From the sequence record MN508616.2: a stretch of 64,000 nt of DNA; one strand, given 5' to 3'. The position numbers and the translations under genes were made by a program. Numbering within the stretch: the first letter of the stretch is position 1; every line of letters starts with the position of its first letter. The DNA is from Escherichia phage ES19. The notes beneath the pieces are model-generated. The model saw only the letters and a list, made by a program, of their open reading frames with translations. It was not told the DNA's origin and searched no databases. Below, piece by piece: positions 1 to 40,789 of this stretch.

Positions 1-110
1 GGTGAACTAATTTTTGAAATTCTACCTGAAATTTTAGTTGAAGGTTTTCTGGTAAATCGAAAAGTGTTTCTGTTGCAGAAAGATTATATTTTTCTTTAAG
101 AGACGCCATG
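1..110 (-). CDS. 5'-partial ORF of unknown product, runs off the window start
   Basis: ATG at 110..108, 27 nt after the regA stop; frame open to position 1 (MASLKEKYNLSATETLFDLPENLQ...). Sits where T4 has gene 43, but the N-terminus does not resemble T4 gp43 as I recall it. Weak RBS. Confidence 0.3.
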
Positions 111-137
111 TATTCTTGCGGAGTTATAGCAGTCATA

Positions 138-506
138 TTAATTACCAATCGTATATTTAGGAACGAGTTTCCATTCATGTTTTTGTTTAAAAGAAATAAC
201 TCGGAAGTTATTAGTTAAATCTTTCATAAAAGTTCTTTGACCAGGAACGATTTCAATCAGTCCCCAATCTTCTAATAGCCATGCAATCGAATCACGACGA
301 ACTTCATCTTCTTCTGTCATTTCAACTTGGCGACCATCCATACGAAGCATTTCTTTAAAATGAACGATATAGTATAGTCCTTTTTTCTGAAGAATATGAC
401 AGGACTGATACAGAACTTTATCTTTATTATTAGCAATTCCCATACGAGTCAAAGTTTCTTTTACTTTCAGAAAATCTTCAGGTTTTTTAAGAGTAATTTC
501 AATCAT
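138..506 (-). CDS. regA: RegA translational repressor
   Basis: 122 aa, same length as T4 RegA; conserved position downstream of genes 44/62. Confidence 0.85.
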   Translation of the reverse strand: MIEITLKKPEDFLKVKETLTRMGIANNKDKVLYQSCHILQKKGLYYIVHFKEMLRMDGRQVEMTEEDEVRRDSIAWLLEDWGLIEIVPGQRTFMKDLTNNFRVISFKQKHEWKLVPKYTIGN

Positions 507-8237: not shown

Positions 8238-8444
8238 TCATAACTGCCACCATTTTTTGACTTGATAAGAATCAACCCACACTTTCATATTAGGGTCTGC
8301 TCTTACAATAGGAGGATTAACTTCTTTAATTGAACTATCATGGTATTCTTTTTCAGAAATTTTCACACAAAGATGACCATTCAGAGATTCAGTAAATCCT
8401 GCATTAATTTTAAGACGCTTGAATTTTACGTGTGTAAGCATCAA
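8238..8444 (-). CDS. hypothetical protein
   Basis: 68-aa ORF on the coding strand between 55 and a-gt. Confidence 0.4.
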   Translation of the reverse strand: MMLTHVKFKRLKINAGFTESLNGHLCVKISEKEYHDSSIKEVNPPIVRADPNMKVWVDSYQVKKWWQL

Positions 8445-8727
8445 TCATATCCTCAATCTGCGATCTAGTAGTCTTCCAAAGAATACTAATGAGTTCATCG
8501 TTATATGGCTGTTTTAGAATATCCCGACTTTTCTTGATAGCATATTCGTATTGAGCAAAATTATTATTTTCAGCTGCGATCTGAGCGTGCTTATAAAGAC
8601 GATTCAGTTCGCGTTTGTTTTTAGACAATAACTTATTTGCTTTTCTTTCTGCTTCAAGACGGTTCTTTTCTTCAATAGAAGAAATAAGCTTTTCCACTTC
8701 ATCATTAATTTCGGGTTTATCAGTCAT
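8410..8727 (-). CDS. hypothetical protein
   Basis: 105-aa ORF on the coding strand; charged, coiled-coil-like. Confidence 0.45.
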   Translation of the reverse strand: MTDKPEINDEVEKLISSIEEKNRLEAERKANKLLSKNKRELNRLYKHAQIAAENNNFAQYEYAIKKSRDILKQPYNDELISILWKTTRSQIEDMIDAYTRKIQAS

Positions 8728-8728
8728 A

Positions 8729-8947
8729 TTATTTCTCTAATATAAAATAAAAATCATCATCTGTTAAATGATACCGATAGTTTAATTCTACACCATTAGA
8801 TTTAAAAGCGGTATCATACGGATTTTCTGGGTCAATATCAATGTCAAGAGCTAAAACTTCCCTGAGATACATTTTAAGTAAATAGGGAATAGCTTCAACT
8901 TCAGGTATTTCTTCCAAGAATCCGGAGAGGTTAATCGTTAGCCTCAT
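8729..8947 (-). CDS. hypothetical protein
   Basis: 72-aa ORF tightly packed downstream of gene 55. Confidence 0.45.
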
Positions 8948-35578: not shown

Positions 35579-35973
35579 CGTGATTCCTTAACAAATTTCA
35601 TAATTTCATCAAATTCATACGCAGCAAGTTTAAGCTGATGTTCCTTTTTAATCTTTTTACACTGTGCTTTCCAATCACGTACGCGTTTACGATAATGCCT
35701 TCCTTGATACCAGTATCCTACCCAATTTACGGGTACTAATAAAAGTGGAACTATTAATGGAAGAATTAGCATTAACACAAGTATTTCGCCAGAATCAATA
35801 TCAGTCATAACATCTAAAACACCTCCAATAATCAATAGAATTACAAATGATATGAGTATAACAGGACCTATTAACACATCAGTAGAAATTATCTGACGCT
35901 TTAATTCATACTTCAACGGTTTACTTGGAAGGTATAGTGATGGCTTTGACATATTCTCTACATTCCTTAACAA
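35560..35973 (-). CDS. membrane protein (e.x cluster)
   Basis: 137 aa, two predicted transmembrane segments. Confidence 0.45.
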   Translation of the reverse strand: MLRNVENMSKPSLYLPSKPLKYELKRQIISTDVLIGPVILISFVILLIIGGVLDVMTDIDSGEILVLMLILPLIVPLLLVPVNWVGYWYQGRHYRKRVRDWKAQCKKIKKEHQLKLAAYEFDEIMKFVKESRCKSQN

Positions 35974-36529
35974 ATTTTTCTAGTAATAAATCACTTTCAA
36001 AATTGGGATTTTCTACAAATTTATCAAAAAGATCATCAACAATAGTTAAGATATTCTTTTTACTAAGAATACGTTTATTTTCATGCTTCGTTTCAGAATC
36101 AACTATAAGAGTAAAGAAATATTTCTTGCCCTGAAATTTTACAGTAGTATCAATATAAAATAAATTTGACTTTTGTAAATTACGTTTAAACCATGCGTCA
36201 CTTAAACTATAAACACCGAGATAATCAAAATCGTCGTTTAAATAACAAACCGTCCATTCAGGAGAAATGAAATCAGTAAATTCAACATCAAAATCACACG
36301 TCAATGAATGAATTGATTCAATACTGTTAATGAGTATTCCAGGACGTATTAAAGACTTTTTACCTCTAGAAAATCTTCCGGAAAGGCTTTCATCAGTTTC
36401 ATATGAAGACCCCCAATAGTAATTACGTCCTTCTGCCATGCGTTTAAGAGCATTTAGTAATTGGTCTGGAACATCAACCTGTCTTTGAAACTCTTCAAAC
36501 ATTGAATTGAAATCACTTTGCATTTTCAT
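35921..36529 (-). CDS. hypothetical protein (e.x cluster)
   Basis: 202-aa ORF; start uncertain. Confidence 0.45.
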   Translation of the reverse strand: MKMQSDFNSMFEEFQRQVDVPDQLLNALKRMAEGRNYYWGSSYETDESLSGRFSRGKKSLIRPGILINSIESIHSLTCDFDVEFTDFISPEWTVCYLNDDFDYLGVYSLSDAWFKRNLQKSNLFYIDTTVKFQGKKYFFTLIVDSETKHENKRILSKKNILTIVDDLFDKFVENPNFESDLLLEKFVKECREYVKAITIPSK

Positions 36530-36549
36530 TCCTATTTACTCCAAGTAAT

Positions 36550-36566
36550 AGGGGCCCGAAGCCCCT
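36550..36566 (-). terminator. GC stem-loop aggggc-ccgaa-gcccct
   Basis: Read directly in the intergenic region; no clear U-tract. Confidence 0.3.
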
Positions 36567-36571
36567 TATCA

Positions 36572-37165
36572 TTATTTCAGAGAATTAATATATTCCTGAA
36601 CATCGGCAGAGGTAGTTTCAACCCCAGAAATATTACCATTAAAGGTTTCAACTCGAGCAAGAGTATCTTCAATATCAACCTTAGTCAGTGCTGCAATTTC
36701 AACTACATCATCAGCAGTACTAATTCCAAGGGCATTCGCTGCACGAGTTTCACGGATATATTCCAATTTAACCGCAAGTTCTTGACGAGCATCATCTAAC
36801 TCAACTACTTTCTTGGCGATTTCAATTCGCATTTCAGCATAACCGTCAGCCTTAGTAGTCAACTGCTCAGCTGTTCGACGATATAGTAAACCGAGTTTAG
36901 CATGCATTGTTACATCTTGGCCTTCGGAAAGAAGTTTACGAATTTCACGCTCTTTTGATTCGGCCTGTCGATTCTTTTCGATAACAAGTTCACGAATACG
37001 TTTTTCTTCGTTAATAGATTTAACAGAAGCAGTTTTTAGATCTTTAATTTTATCAAGTAGTTTTGCTGCTGCAGCAGTATACTGTTCTTCGACAGATAGA
37101 TTTTTAGCCATAGCAGAACCAAGTTTAGTGCGAATAAACTCAACAATTTTCTTCAGTGTGTTCAT
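36572..37165 (-). CDS. coiled-coil protein (e.x cluster)
   Basis: 197 aa, largely helical/charged. Confidence 0.45.
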
Positions 37166-37759: not shown

Positions 37760-38323
37760 TTATTTACCTAGTTTACTTATTATAGCTTCTGCAGCAGCTT
37801 TTAGCTTAGATGCAGTGTTAATACGATTTTTAATTTCAGTATACGCATCGCCAAGAACATCAAGGCTATCAGAATAAACACTTACACTATTGCGTTCGCT
37901 ATTTGAAATAGAACCTTTAGTTTTGCGGTCAAAATCGGTGTACACGTCTTGAAGATCGCGGGCTGCCTTCTTTGCATCATCCAATGCATCAAGAGCTTTA
38001 TTCAAAGCATTAACGTATTTTTTAGTGTCGAACATATTCTTAGAAATTTTAACAGGTGCGCGTTCAGGAGTAGCTAACACAGATTTAGGAACCTGAGCGC
38101 CAGATGCCAATTTCTTAGAAATTTTGAAAAATGCTTTATTGAATTTATTTTCTTGACTCATTGTAAAAGAACTATTATCGATGTTGTACATTTCAATAGC
38201 TTTAGCTTTCCACTTAAGAAAATCGCCGCGGTCTTTTGGGTCCAATTGGAAGAATACTTTAGTAAGATCTGCTTCAGATGGTAATTTTGCTGCTTCGGTT
38301 AAAAATTCGGCATAGGTTTTCAT
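37760..38323 (-). CDS. internal-protein-like protein with capsid-targeting-sequence-like N-terminus
   Basis: 187 aa; N-terminus MKTYAEFLTE-A resembles the T4 IP leader MKTYQEFIAE with a gp21-protease-type L-x-E site; possible late-promoter-like AATAAATA upstream. Confidence 0.45.
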   Translation of the reverse strand: MKTYAEFLTEAAKLPSEADLTKVFFQLDPKDRGDFLKWKAKAIEMYNIDNSSFTMSQENKFNKAFFKISKKLASGAQVPKSVLATPERAPVKISKNMFDTKKYVNALNKALDALDDAKKAARDLQDVYTDFDRKTKGSISNSERNSVSVYSDSLDVLGDAYTEIKNRINTASKLKAAAEAIISKLGK

Positions 38324-38448: not shown

Positions 38449-38922
38449 TCATTTGATTTGTTTAGCAGACCAAATGCGGTCTTTAATAATTTTTTGGATG
38501 TCTTCAACATACTCAAGAGAGTGAACATGTGGATTATCTTTGAAACTATAAGCACGGGCTAACTTTTGGCCTTCGGTTTTGATTACTAAAAGCTCTTTAA
38601 GGATAGCTTCATATTTAGCGATAATTCCTTTAACGATATTTTTTTCTTGTGCCGCTTTAGGATCTGCTTTAGGAGCAGGTTTACCCGAAGCCTTTGCAAA
38701 AGCAGCGCCAGTAGCAACTAAACTTTTCCAGGCCATACTAACTGCATTTCCCGTAAATCCTTCCGCTTTCATGTCGCGTGCAAACTGGAATCGTGATTCA
38801 TCAGAAGCATCTTTATAGGAATATTTACCCGCGGCAATGGCAGCTTTTGCAACAGCTTGAATTTCGGTGCTAGATGCTTCATTTAACACCGCTTCATTTA
38901 AAAATTGAGTATATGATTTCAT
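38449..38922 (-). CDS. internal-protein-like protein with capsid-targeting-sequence-like N-terminus
   Basis: 157 aa from ATG at 38922 (MKSYTQFLNE-A...) with RBS AGGAAATAAG; the track ORF extends upstream through the promoter and terminator. Confidence 0.5.
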   Translation of the reverse strand: MKSYTQFLNEAVLNEASSTEIQAVAKAAIAAGKYSYKDASDESRFQFARDMKAEGFTGNAVSMAWKSLVATGAAFAKASGKPAPKADPKAAQEKNIVKGIIAKYEAILKELLVIKTEGQKLARAYSFKDNPHVHSLEYVEDIQKIIKDRIWSAKQIK

Positions 38923-38974: not shown

Positions 38975-38998
38975 AGCCCCAACCTTTCGGTCGGGGCT
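38975..38998 (-). terminator. rho-independent terminator; copy B of the 31-bp direct repeat
   Basis: Identical to 38418..38441; lies downstream of the non-coding RNA-like region. Confidence 0.6.
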
Positions 38999-39000
38999 AA

Positions 39001-39300
39001 GCCTTGCGGCAACCTTGTCGGGGTTCCACCTGCTAAGGCAAGTGTTTGTACGAAACGCCGGGATTCGAACCCGGTTATTAAGTAGTTGACGCTACTCAAT
39101 ATTTTTAAAAGGCCATATCTCGACCATATCCGAACGTTCCGTCAAAAACGCTACTCGGCTTACGGCAAAGATATTTCCTCGAATCGATAATTCGGTGCGC
39201 CGTTTCTGCTGTGATAGTAAAGAGCCAGAACACAGTAAAACTGTGGGAGGAAACTATACTCCAGGGAACATCAGTCCGACGACTTACCGGTAGCGACCCG
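39001..39300 (-). ncRNA. candidate small stable RNA(s) with tRNA-like 3' domain
   Basis: About 300 nt without a credible ORF between ORF 39306..39656 and the terminator; GC-richer than surroundings; canonical T-arm CCGGG-TTCGAAT-CCCGG on minus (plus 39058..39074) with possible acceptor pairing CGGAACG/CGTTTCG but no full cloverleaf. T4 encodes two stable RNAs next to its tRNA cluster. Confidence 0.3.
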
Positions 39301-39305
39301 GTTTC

Positions 39306-39656
39306 TTAATATTCTTTTAAAGAATCAATATATTCACGGCGTTTACGCCACAAATCAATTGCTTCATACGCGGATTCAGCATTTCGAATTAGCCGGCATT
39401 TATGTAAAGACTTATGATTTTGATATTGTGTAGATAACGGAATTGTATCTAAAAGGTCTTTACGATCAAAATATTCGTAACCATCTAAACCAAATGAACG
39501 ATTTTTGAGAAATTGCCAATGACCATATTCGTTTTCGACATAAACATAATCTGCATGCTGATAAAGCAAATTAATTACACGTTCAGAAATAACAGTATCA
39601 TTATGATTAAAATAGAATGTTAAATCATGAACTACTAAATAAACATTACCTTTCAT
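39306..39656 (-). CDS. hypothetical protein co-transcribed with the tRNA cluster
   Basis: 116 aa; ATG at 39656 is 18 nt downstream of the tRNA-Arg 3' end with RBS GTGAGGAAA; no recognisable motif. Confidence 0.5.
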   Translation of the reverse strand: MKGNVYLVVHDLTFYFNHNDTVISERVINLLYQHADYVYVENEYGHWQFLKNRSFGLDGYEYFDRKDLLDTIPLSTQYQNHKSLHKCRLIRNAESAYEAIDLWRKRREYIDSLKEY

Positions 39657-39674
39657 ATTTTCCTCACTTATAAT

Positions 39675-39750
39675 TGGTCGAGGCAGTAGGGATCGAACCT
39701 ACGACCTAGGACTTAGAAGGTCCTTGCTCTTCCTTCTGAGCTATGCCCCG
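39675..39750 (-). tRNA. tRNA-Arg (anticodon UCU)
   Basis: Cloverleaf folded by hand: acceptor CGGGGCA/TGCCTCG, anticodon loop CTTCTAA, T-loop TTCGATC, encoded CCA. Confidence 0.8.
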
Positions 39751-39754
39751 TAAT

Positions 39755-39830
39755 TGGGGTGACCGATGGGAGTCGAACCCATGACTACGAGAATCACAAT
39801 CTCGAGTTCTACCAACTGAACTACGGCCAC
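39755..39830 (-). tRNA. tRNA-His (anticodon GUG)
   Basis: Acceptor GTGGCCG/CGGTCAC, anticodon loop TTGTGAT, T-loop TTCGACT, encoded CCA. Confidence 0.75.
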
Positions 39831-39924
39831 ATTAATACCTACTCCAACAATCAAGATGTCTTCACACGAAATTAAGAGAAGAGTGATCAGTTCAACCCCT
39901 ATAATCGCGTCAAGTAGATATTAA

Positions 39925-39940
39925 TGTGACAGTTGTCACA
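39925..39940 (-). repeat. perfect hairpin tgtgac-agtt-gtcaca in the spacer between tRNA-Asn and tRNA-His
   Basis: 6-bp inverted repeat read directly; candidate processing site. Confidence 0.4.
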
Positions 39941-39944
39941 AATT

Positions 39945-40019
39945 TGGCGGACGTGATAGGATTCGAACCTATAACCAATCGCTTAACAGGCGATCGCTCT
40001 GCCATTGAGCTACACATCC
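39945..40019 (-). tRNA. tRNA-Asn (anticodon GUU)
   Basis: Acceptor GGATGTG/CACGTCC, anticodon loop CTGTTAA, T-loop TTCGAAT, encoded CCA. Confidence 0.8.
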
Positions 40020-40023
40020 AAAT

Positions 40024-40110
40024 TGGTGGGGAGTGGTGGAGTCGAACCACCCGAGTCGCAATGACAATGGATTTACAGTCCACACCGCTACCTCTACGGG
40101 ATAACTCCCC
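40024..40110 (-). tRNA. tRNA-Tyr (anticodon GUA), long variable arm
   Basis: Acceptor GGGGAGT/ACTCCCC, anticodon loop CTGTAAA, T-loop TTCGACT, encoded CCA; 87 nt. Confidence 0.75.
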
Positions 40111-40119
40111 AAATTAATT

Positions 40120-40194
40120 TGGTGGCCCTGGGTGGAATTGAACCACCATCTGGCGATTATGAGTCGCTTGCTTGAACCTTCCAGCTACAGGGCC
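40120..40194 (-). tRNA. tRNA with CAU anticodon (Met, or Ile if C34 is modified)
   Basis: Acceptor GGCCCTG/CAGGGCC, anticodon loop CTCATAA, T-loop TTCAATT, encoded CCA. Confidence 0.7.
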
Positions 40195-40195
40195 T

Positions 40196-40271
40196 TGGTG
40201 CTGATTGACGGAATCGAACCGCCGACCTTCTCATTACAAGTGAGTTGCTCTACCTACTGAGCTAAATCAGC
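40196..40271 (-). tRNA. tRNA-Thr (anticodon UGU)
   Basis: Acceptor GCTGATT/AATCAGC, anticodon loop CTTGTAA, T-loop TTCGATT, encoded CCA. Confidence 0.8.
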
Positions 40272-40276
40272 AAAAC

Positions 40277-40366
40277 TGGCGGAGGCGATAGGATTTGAAC
40301 CTATGAGTCGCCGGAGCGACTGCCGGTTTTCAAGACCGGTGCATTAAACCACTCTGCCACGCCTCC
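40277..40366 (-). tRNA. tRNA-Ser (anticodon UGA), long variable arm
   Basis: Acceptor GGAGGCG/CGCCTCC, anticodon loop CTTGAAA, T-loop TTCAAAT, encoded CCA; 90 nt. Confidence 0.8.
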
Positions 40367-40368
40367 AG

Positions 40369-40442
40369 TCTCCGTGGCAGGATTTGAACCTACGACATTC
40401 TGCTCCCAAAGCAGACGCTCTACCAAACTGAGCTACACGGAG
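40369..40442 (-). tRNA. tRNA-Pro (anticodon UGG), CCA not encoded
   Basis: Acceptor CTCCGTG/CACGGAG, anticodon loop TTTGGGA, T-loop TTCAAAT; only 2 nt separate it from tRNA-Ser (dimeric precursor arrangement as in T4). Confidence 0.8.
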
Positions 40443-40452
40443 TAAATTAAAT

Positions 40453-40526
<74 letters not shown>

Positions 40527-40531
40527 AAATT

Positions 40532-40618
40532 TGGTGCGAGAAGTGGGACTCGAACCCACAAGGAAATCATTCCGCAGCATTTTAAGTGCTGTGCCTTTAC
40601 CAATTTGGCCATTCTCGC
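40532..40618 (-). tRNA. tRNA-Leu (anticodon UAA), long variable arm
   Basis: Acceptor GCGAGAA/TTCTCGC, anticodon loop CTTAAAA, T-loop TTCGAGT, encoded CCA. Confidence 0.8.
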
Positions 40619-40619
40619 G

Positions 40620-40692
40620 CTGGGAATAAAGGACTCGAACCTTTGCATCCTGGAATCAAAATCCAGTGCCTTACCAACTTGGCTAATTCCCA
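40620..40692 (-). tRNA. tRNA-Gln (anticodon UUG), CCA not encoded
   Basis: Acceptor TGGGAAT/ATTCCCA (U1-A72), anticodon loop TTTTGAT, T-loop TTCGAGT; 1 nt from tRNA-Leu (Gln-Leu dimeric precursor as in T4). Confidence 0.8.
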
Positions 40693-40717: not shown

Positions 40718-40789
40718 GAACCCTTGATGATAGAGGGTATTAATCAGTGCGATATGAGTTAATAATAACAAATAATTCTTAAAGCATAT

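Follow-up and report, generated by a model that had tools for sequence, protein, structure and literature searches.

In the Escherichia coli thrU-tyrU-glyT-thrT-tufB operon, an mRNA is co-transcribed downstream of tRNAs and is released from them by tRNA processing. A protein gene also lies among the co-transcribed tRNA genes of the T-even phage T4, namely segB, an actively mobile gene for a protein of 221 aa with GIY-YIG and NUMOD3 motifs. When the tRNA region of phage T2L was sequenced, two ORFs of unknown function, trna.1 and trna.2, were described there (Brok-Volchanskaya et al., NAR 2008, PMC2330249). In T4 × T2L crosses, SegB homing replaced a T2L segment of ~1250 bp including trna.2, with 0.4% of the progeny keeping trna.2, and the whole tRNA region was reported as not essential for phage development (PMC2330249). 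Small phage proteins are also known from counter-defence: in the T5 family, tRNA-Tyr together with the protein Rad acts against a retron (bioRxiv 10.1101/2023.03.15.532788), and the T-even proteins Gp49.2 (anti-OLD), NrdC.1 (anti-Septu), bas37_0203 (anti-Druantia III) and TifA (anti-ToxIN) are small and non-essential, have no known domains and are encoded in variable regions.

The window analysed here, a 64,000-nt stretch of Escherichia phage ES19 (sequence record MN508616.2), represents a T2/HP3-like Tequatrovirus. A first-pass annotation of its letters had noticed a 116-aa ORF with a ribosome-binding site 18 nt after tRNA-Arg, at what was taken for the 3′ end of the tRNA operon, and had suggested a tRNA-related function for its product. 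Below, this ORF is compared with the described systems in its position, conservation, gene order, predicted fold and transposon phenotype.

Position of the ORF between the tRNA genes and two stable RNA genes

The coordinates of the ORF and its Shine-Dalgarno site were confirmed (Table 1). Exactly 18 nt separate the encoded CCA of tRNA-Arg from the ATG of the ORF, and within this spacer GAGG occupies 39665-39662, 5 nt before the ATG; the product has a calculated mass of 14.2 kDa and a pI of 6.3. The ~300 nt 3′ of the ORF (39309..39049), in which an RNA-like region had been suspected, aligned nearly base for base with T4 rnaD and then rnaC, and so proved to be homologs of these two genes. The ORF is therefore internal to the operon and not at its 3′ end, since it stands between the tRNAs and two stable RNAs that precede the terminator. 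In alignment to the annotated T4 5′ end, its TAA falls within the first 4 nt of rnaD (presumptive mature ends) in Tequatrovirus and Mosigvirus alike.

Table 1. Features of the tRNA/ORF/stable-RNA locus in the window, and rnaC homologs in related contigs (prefixed L)
Feature	Position	Strand	Basis
Candidate T4-type middle promoter (MotA box TGCTTTA, 12-nt spacer, −10 TATTAT)	40762..40786	−	Pattern search
11 co-oriented tRNA genes	39675..40692	−	ARAGORN, Rfam tRNA matches
tRNA-Arg(TCT), last of the 11	39675-39750	−	ARAGORN
18-nt spacer ATTATAAGTGAGGAAAAT, tRNA-Arg CCA to ATG	39657..39674	−	Read from sequence
116-aa ORF, ATG start; ortholog of T2L trna.2 ORF, bas37_0245, PHROG 3355	39306..39656	−	ORF listing of the window, homology
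rnaD (T4 species 2 RNA) homolog	39194..39309	−	Alignment to T4 annotation; presumptive mature ends
rnaC (T4 species 1 RNA) homolog, tRNA-like stable RNA	39049..39187	−	Alignment to T4 annotation
Intrinsic terminator, 10-bp stem (7 G-C pairs) then TTTTT	38975..38998	−	Hairpin scan; annotated terminator in phage D5505
rnaC homolog, L018	3009-3162		nhmmer
rnaC homolog, L019 (metagenomic contig)	72-231		nhmmer
rnaC homolog, L017	25336-25501	−	nhmmer
rnaC homolog, L005	2597-2669		nhmmer

The tRNA genes follow one another in the order Gln, Leu, Gly, Pro, Ser, Thr, Met(CAT), Tyr, Asn, His and Arg; the Met(CAT) gene carries the annotation Ile2 in related records, and the same set of 11 tRNAs is annotated in phages Pinarejo, Paracelsus and WilhelmHis. 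The candidate middle promoter lies ~70 nt upstream of tRNA-Gln, and its pattern, TGCTTYA-N11-13-TANNNT, matched 15 times in the window against 2.1 matches expected. The TGCTTYA-type consensus is that of T4 middle promoters, and the site would be the likely start of the unit of tRNAs, ORF and stable RNAs. Between tRNA-Arg and the ORF, no convincing terminator or promoter was found. Since the parts are co-oriented, with a promoter-like site at the head and a terminator only after rnaC, we infer a single transcription unit in the order promoter, 11 tRNAs, ORF, RNA D, RNA C and terminator. Co-transcription of the ORF with the tRNAs, as the first-pass annotation had assumed, is thus consistent with the shared strand, with the lack of a convincing signal at the junction and with the MotA-like site upstream of tRNA-Gln, the transcript itself being deduced from these features.

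In such a unit the promoter upstream of tRNA-Gln would drive middle-mode transcription of a polycistronic precursor that includes the ORF and ends at the terminator after rnaC. The mRNA of the ORF would be the segment left between 3′ processing of tRNA-Arg and 5′ processing of RNA D, with the GAGG in front of the ATG serving for its translation. Since the stop codon is included in the first nucleotides of rnaD, expression of the ORF could be coupled to 5′ maturation of RNA D. This layout would resemble that of the E. coli tRNA-mRNA operons in having an mRNA downstream of tRNAs, but would differ from it in that the phage mRNA is followed by processed stable RNAs and ends with its stop codon inside the next RNA gene.

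Several other signals in the region were examined and discarded. Inside the ORF, a terminator-like hairpin (39355-39332) lacks a real T-run and is not regarded as functional, and a MotA-box-like match (39568-39543), whose −10 is poor, probably arose by chance; two-piece matches of 1496 bp that resembled an insertion were an artefact of the duplicated terminator hairpin.

Variation was observed within the RNA genes themselves. The central part of the rnaD homolog of the window differs from that of T4, T6 and Mosigvirus, both ends being conserved, and the window and T2 have an rnaD segment with the hairpin CACAGTTTTACTGTG in place of the T4-type segment. The 114-nt gap between tRNA-Asn and tRNA-His (39831-39944, minus strand) holds the inverted repeat TGTGAC-AGTT-GTCACA (39925-39940); in T2, tRNA-His is missing and tRNA-Arg follows almost directly after tRNA-Asn. 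In a Mosigvirus contig (L012, 3015-3108), ARAGORN called a 94-nt ‘tRNA-Stop (tta)’ in the rnaD/rnaC region 3′ of the ORF, which is probably a tRNA-like part of the stable RNAs and not a suppressor tRNA.

Conservation of the ORF and its identity with T2L trna.2

The length of the ORF is by itself weak evidence for a gene, because shuffling a 64-kb window of the same composition would by chance leave ~1.7 open stretches of at least 116 codons over its six frames. The full-length ORF is kept in 425 phage records, and pairwise dN/dS values within the family range from 0.06 to 0.26, even between genera with dS >1.3. Judged by this comparative evidence, the ORF is a real gene for a protein and evolves under purifying selection. 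The 18-nt spacer and its Shine-Dalgarno site are nearly invariant between Tequatrovirus and Mosigvirus despite the differing alleles of the adjacent tRNA-Arg. An extra constraint at the RNA level on the first 18 codons was not convincing, with synonymous changes numbering 3-4 of 17 there against 8-12 of 26-27 in codons 19-53. In one T2 record (PV958097), codons 44-45 code for Phe-Arg in place of the family's Tyr/Phe-Gly; in the other members Gly45 is nearly invariant, and Arg45 of this record may be a laboratory-strain variant.

Sequence comparison linked the ORF to a gene already in the literature. Phages Pinarejo, YUEEL01 and others share the 1-kb region around it with 100% identity, the PHROG 3355 profile matched it with E=7.9e-53 (residues 1-115 of 116 against profile positions 1-116 of 117), and bas37_0245 of phage KarlGJung/Bas37 is 99.1% identical to its product. 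The T2L trna.2 primers #24 and #25 match the start and the C-terminal coding sequence of the ORF, primer #24 (GAAAGGTAATGTTTATTTAGTCGTTCATG) aligning to 39655-39627 on the minus strand with one mismatch, and the T2 genome record runs from tRNA-Arg through an 18-nt spacer and a 351-nt CDS into the stable-RNA region. By these matches the ORF is the ortholog of the T2L trna.2 ORF and has been known since 2008. T2L trna.2, bas37_0245 and PHROG 3355 represent the same gene in the same place between tRNA-Arg and the stable RNAs, with proteins 95-99% identical; T2 differs from the window in having neither tRNA-Thr nor tRNA-His, and T2L in having the second ORF, trna.1, which is absent from the window. 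Literature searches by PHROG id and by peptide string returned no mention of the ORF. No new biology is established by the present analysis, and the gene joins the many uncharacterised conserved genes of T-even phages.

The ORF-less junction of T4 and T6

The statement in the first-pass annotation that in T4 segB sits inside the cluster and that nothing codes for protein between tRNA-Arg and the stable RNAs was accurate, since 1 nt separates tRNA-Arg from rnaD in T4. Comparison of the locus across T-even genomes found the ORF in most sequenced T2-like and Mosigvirus genomes and its absence from T4 and T6, in which segB is present together with a non-homologous tRNA-Arg allele abutting rnaD. 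T4 lacks a coding sequence at this junction because the segB cassette replaced the ORF segment. The T4-type ORF-less junction occurred in 104 records at ≥80% query coverage, compared with the 425 records that have the ORF, which corrects the T4-centred view: the arrangement tRNA-Arg/ORF/RNA D/RNA C is the common one and that of T4 the minority. The segB gene can be regarded as an alternative occupant of the same variable segment, to which the ORF shows no homology; the ORF carries no nuclease motif and is displaced by segB homing. Bas37 has a putative homing endonuclease gene, bas37_0256, at the tRNA-Gln position at the head of the cluster (L022, 1415-2032) and keeps the ORF; since both are present, having such an endonuclease gene in the cluster is not enough to exclude the ORF.

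Distribution and gene order of the family

The family is small and confined to T4-like phages, with 12 clusters among 5.8 billion proteins. An exhaustive HMMER search of 1.84 billion representatives returned 8 matches, the only one outside the family being a repetitive protein of 650 aa that aligned over eight short stretches, and a search for paralogs in the window and in the T4, T6 and KPV15 loci gave only a chance match to a helical, K/E-rich ORF at 8413-8736. Truncated versions of the family protein occur in some metagenomic contigs.

In 7 of the 7 lineages examined, the family gene lies inside the tRNA cluster and on the tRNA strand, and its flanking tRNAs vary (Arg, Leu, Trp, Pro/Met). 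It begins 18 nt after tRNA-Arg in Tequatrovirus and Mosigvirus, 16 nt after tRNA-Trp in a metagenomic contig (L019) and 107 nt after tRNA-Leu in Winklervirus CHI14; it follows tRNA-Trp and a small ORF in Mosugukvirus PM2, stands between 13 upstream and 4 downstream tRNAs in phage EcS1, and is a 121-aa CDS between tRNA-Pro and tRNA-Met in Jiaodavirus KPV15 (hmmsearch E=2e-9). A fit of the ORF with an expanded tRNA set, as had been proposed, was not upheld: Mosigviruses, which have two tRNAs only and in which two different tRNA-Arg alleles occur beside the ORF, keep it with its 18-nt spacer, and T6 has tRNA-Tyr and no ORF.

The rnaC gene is conserved well beyond Tequatrovirus. By nhmmer, homologs were found near the family gene in EcS1, KPV15, the metagenomic relative and, in part, PM2 (Table 1), and none was found in the CHI14 locus, which has the family gene. 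In these four genomes rnaC is followed by tRNA-Trp and, further downstream, by the ORF, so that two orders around rnaC exist, tRNA-Arg/ORF/rnaD/rnaC and rnaC/tRNA-Trp/.../ORF. RNAalifold applied to the five rnaC sequences predicted a tRNA-like fold (closing stem, long arm, second arm, and a T-arm with a GGTTCGA loop), in which pairs changed on both sides at 19 of 44 positions and compensatory base changes occurred in other genera; the rnaC/rnaD region matched no Rfam family at E≤1. Because the family gene sits in the tRNA cluster, usually near rnaC, across genera, it is an old resident of the tRNA/RNA C locus, which is suggestive of a link between them, or of plain inherited synteny in a locus of 1-5 kb.

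Sequence and predicted fold of the product

The protein and its family were searched against profile and structure collections, and no known motif was detectable, in agreement with the first-pass annotation. No Pfam family matched the 116-aa protein at E≤10, and none matched the 12 family members at this threshold except sub-threshold fragments of DUF2654; no nuclease family was among the matches. The DUF2654 candidates, partial matches in Mosigvirus members with E 0.003-0.03, lie below the 25-bit cutoff and were set aside, DUF2654 itself being of unknown function. A GIY-YIG, HNH or related nuclease domain was not detectable by profile in the ORF protein or in the 12 members, and the PADLOC anti-phage defence models gave 0 matching families for 11 members at E≤1. 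Homology of the tRNA kinase/phosphatase, ligase, methyltransferase, CCA-adding or Stp/Dmd type was likewise not found in Pfam, in PDB sequence and fold comparisons or in the HMMER search of 1.84 billion representatives. In neither sequence nor fold did the protein resemble any tRNA modification, repair or nuclease-inhibitor protein, and the suggested tRNA-related function is left without direct support.

AlphaFold2, run on the alignment of 12 sequences, gave a model of moderate confidence (pLDDT 74) with a predicted beta-beta-alpha-beta-beta layout, short helices and then a long C-terminal helix. No solved-structure relative of this model was found, and the proteins it matched in BFVD, of similar length and encoded by other T4-like phages, are all uncharacterised. 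The positions invariant in the family are mostly aromatic or hydrophobic, with the addition of N42, K51, R53 and R107, and nothing among them looks catalytic; the pI of the members is about 6-8. The ORF starts with MKGNVYLVVHD, which is not the MKTYQEF-type capsid-targeting N-terminus of the T4 internal proteins IPI-III.

Transposon phenotype of the Bas37 ortholog

Fitness data for the 99%-identical ortholog bas37_0245 come from a HIDEN-SEQ transposon screen of Bas37, in which fitness on five uropathogenic hosts is expressed relative to K-12 (bioRxiv 10.1101/2025.11.20.689424). In that screen 33 of the 38 TA sites of bas37_0245 were disrupted, and the gene is non-essential on E. coli K-12. Its log2FC was −0.20 on CFT073, −0.30 on CFE299 (a host with two Septu systems and a retron), −0.31 on CFE303, −0.02 on CFE331 and −0.31 on CFE336, with an adjusted p of 1 on every host. 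With values of this size, no host-specific fitness loss of the anti-defence class is recorded for bas37_0245 on those five hosts, and no anti-defence role is evident on them where several other genes scored. The phage tRNA genes, too, had no significant effect on CFE299, CFE303 and CFE336 in the same screen. By way of its ortholog, the 116-aa ORF is dispensable in the hosts tested.

Possible functions of the ORF

We read the ORF as an ancestral accessory gene of T4-like phages that resides in a tRNA/stable-RNA transcription unit, its identity, architecture and evolutionary history being well supported. For its product, our best guess, made with low confidence (a probability of roughly 0.4), is a non-enzymatic protein that is useful under some conditions only, in host interaction or counter-defence, and that is expressed from the tRNA precursor. 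Such a protein, small, soluble, of alpha/beta type and devoid of catalytic motifs, would act by binding to a component of the host, as a factor of host takeover or counter-defence like those encoded in T-even variable regions, and not as an enzyme of tRNA metabolism. This guess is drawn by analogy with small T-even proteins of unknown fold that were later proven to be anti-defence proteins. Gp49.2, NrdC.1, bas37_0203 and TifA resemble the ORF product in the properties given above, but no sequence relationship with it was found; they gave host-specific phenotypes, whereas none was recorded for bas37_0245 in the same screen, and the 116-aa family is more widely and more syntenically conserved than they are. 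Against a host-binding protein stand the null transposon results and the retention at one locus in at least 6 lineages under strong purifying selection, which is broader than is typical of patchy anti-defence genes; nothing in the analysis points to a particular partner or target, and the predicted structure is a moderate one.

Rather unlikely, in our estimate, is an RNA-linked function, in which the protein would work on or with the phage tRNAs or the stable RNAs C and D as an RNP partner, a chaperone or a shield against host nucleases that target tRNA; this extends the suggestion of the first-pass annotation to RNAs C and D. The constant place of the family on the tRNA strand of the cluster despite differing flanking tRNAs, the short distance of 16-18 nt that separates the ORF from the 3′ end of the preceding tRNA in Tequatrovirus, Mosigvirus and the metagenomic relative, and an rnaC homolog ~90-850 nt from the family gene in two gene orders would all fit such a function, and the invariant W47, F49, K51, R53, W103 and R107 could form an RNA-binding face. 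However, T4 and T6 make RNAs C and D and tRNA-Arg without the ORF protein, CHI14 has the family gene in a locus with no detected rnaC, the pI is near neutral with no RNA-binding or tRNA-enzyme domain detectable, the transposon screen gave no phenotype on CFE299 with its two Septu systems or on the four other hosts, and the shared location may amount to inherited synteny in one small locus. The T5-family pair of tRNA-Tyr and Rad is a precedent and the closest analogue of tRNA protection, being a tRNA and a small protein that counter a tRNA-directed defence; it belongs to another phage family, and no sign of anti-retron or anti-Septu activity was seen for the ORF. More doubtful still is the narrower proposal of a protein dedicated to RNAs C and D or to the phage tRNAs, which might form an RNP with RNA C or protect these RNAs against host nucleases directed at tRNA; if true, it would provide the first functional handle on RNAs C and D. 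What sets the ORF apart is that in several genera it has stayed within the tRNA cluster and mostly close to rnaC, and it is for this reason that the protein is a reasonable candidate partner of RNAs C and D or of tRNA-targeting defences.

The remaining explanations fared worse. That the ORF belongs to a selfish or mobility cassette, as a homing endonuclease remnant, a helper or an immunity factor riding with the tRNA-Arg segment, is improbable: its presence/absence polymorphism has tRNA-Arg and rnaD as exact limits, the region is known for contests between homing elements and the same cluster of Bas37 holds another putative homing endonuclease, but no GIY-YIG, HNH, other nuclease or DNA-binding domain was detectable, the ORF was the loser and not the driver in the T4 × T2L crosses, and the gene is old, syntenic across genera and under purifying selection, unlike recently invading endonuclease genes. 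Very improbable is a spurious or decaying ORF without function, with which its dispensability under every condition tested and the truncated metagenomic versions would agree, and with which the low dN/dS at dS >1.3 between genera, the 425 full-length records and the conserved Shine-Dalgarno site and spacer disagree. A cyclic-nucleotide-binding (CNB) sponge was considered on account of a single match of the family profile among PDB sequences, to the cGMP-dependent kinase CNB domain 5c6c_A (PKG II; hmmsearch E=0.006, residues 20-112). It was the only match among the many PDB CNB domains; hhalign against E. coli CRP gave a probability of 0.2%, Pfam cNMP_binding (PF00027) was unmatched in 12 of the 12 family members even at E≤10, the Gly-Glu of the phosphate-binding cassette (Gly-Glu ... 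Arg-Thr/Ser-Ala) is variable in the family, and the predicted 4-5 strands differ from the 8-stranded CNB beta-barrel. With CRP comparison, Pfam, cassette and topology all against it, the CNB sponge is effectively refuted.

Neighbouring loci

Just downstream of the operon lie two ORFs that are absent from T4, of 187 aa (37760-38323, minus strand) and 157 aa (38449-38922, minus strand), with the internal-protein-like N-termini MKTYAEFLTEA and MKSYTQFLNEA, respectively. The 157-aa ORF has a late-promoter motif, TATAAATA, upstream of it at 38968-38961 and is flanked by two identical terminator hairpins, one at 38998-38975 and the other at 38441-38418. In the HIDEN-SEQ study, bas37_0243, the ortholog of the 187-aa ORF, is classed as ‘Essential’, with insertions in 1 of its 48 TA sites; for a gene absent from T4 this class is odd (bioRxiv 10.1101/2025.11.20.689424). 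Homologs of e.5/e.6 are located at ~35921-37165 (minus strand) of the window; their orthologs bas37_0239 and bas37_0240 were strongly depleted on CFT073, with log2FC of −3.6 and −6.5 and an adjusted p of 0 (bioRxiv 10.1101/2025.11.20.689424), and are candidate host-specific factors near the locus.
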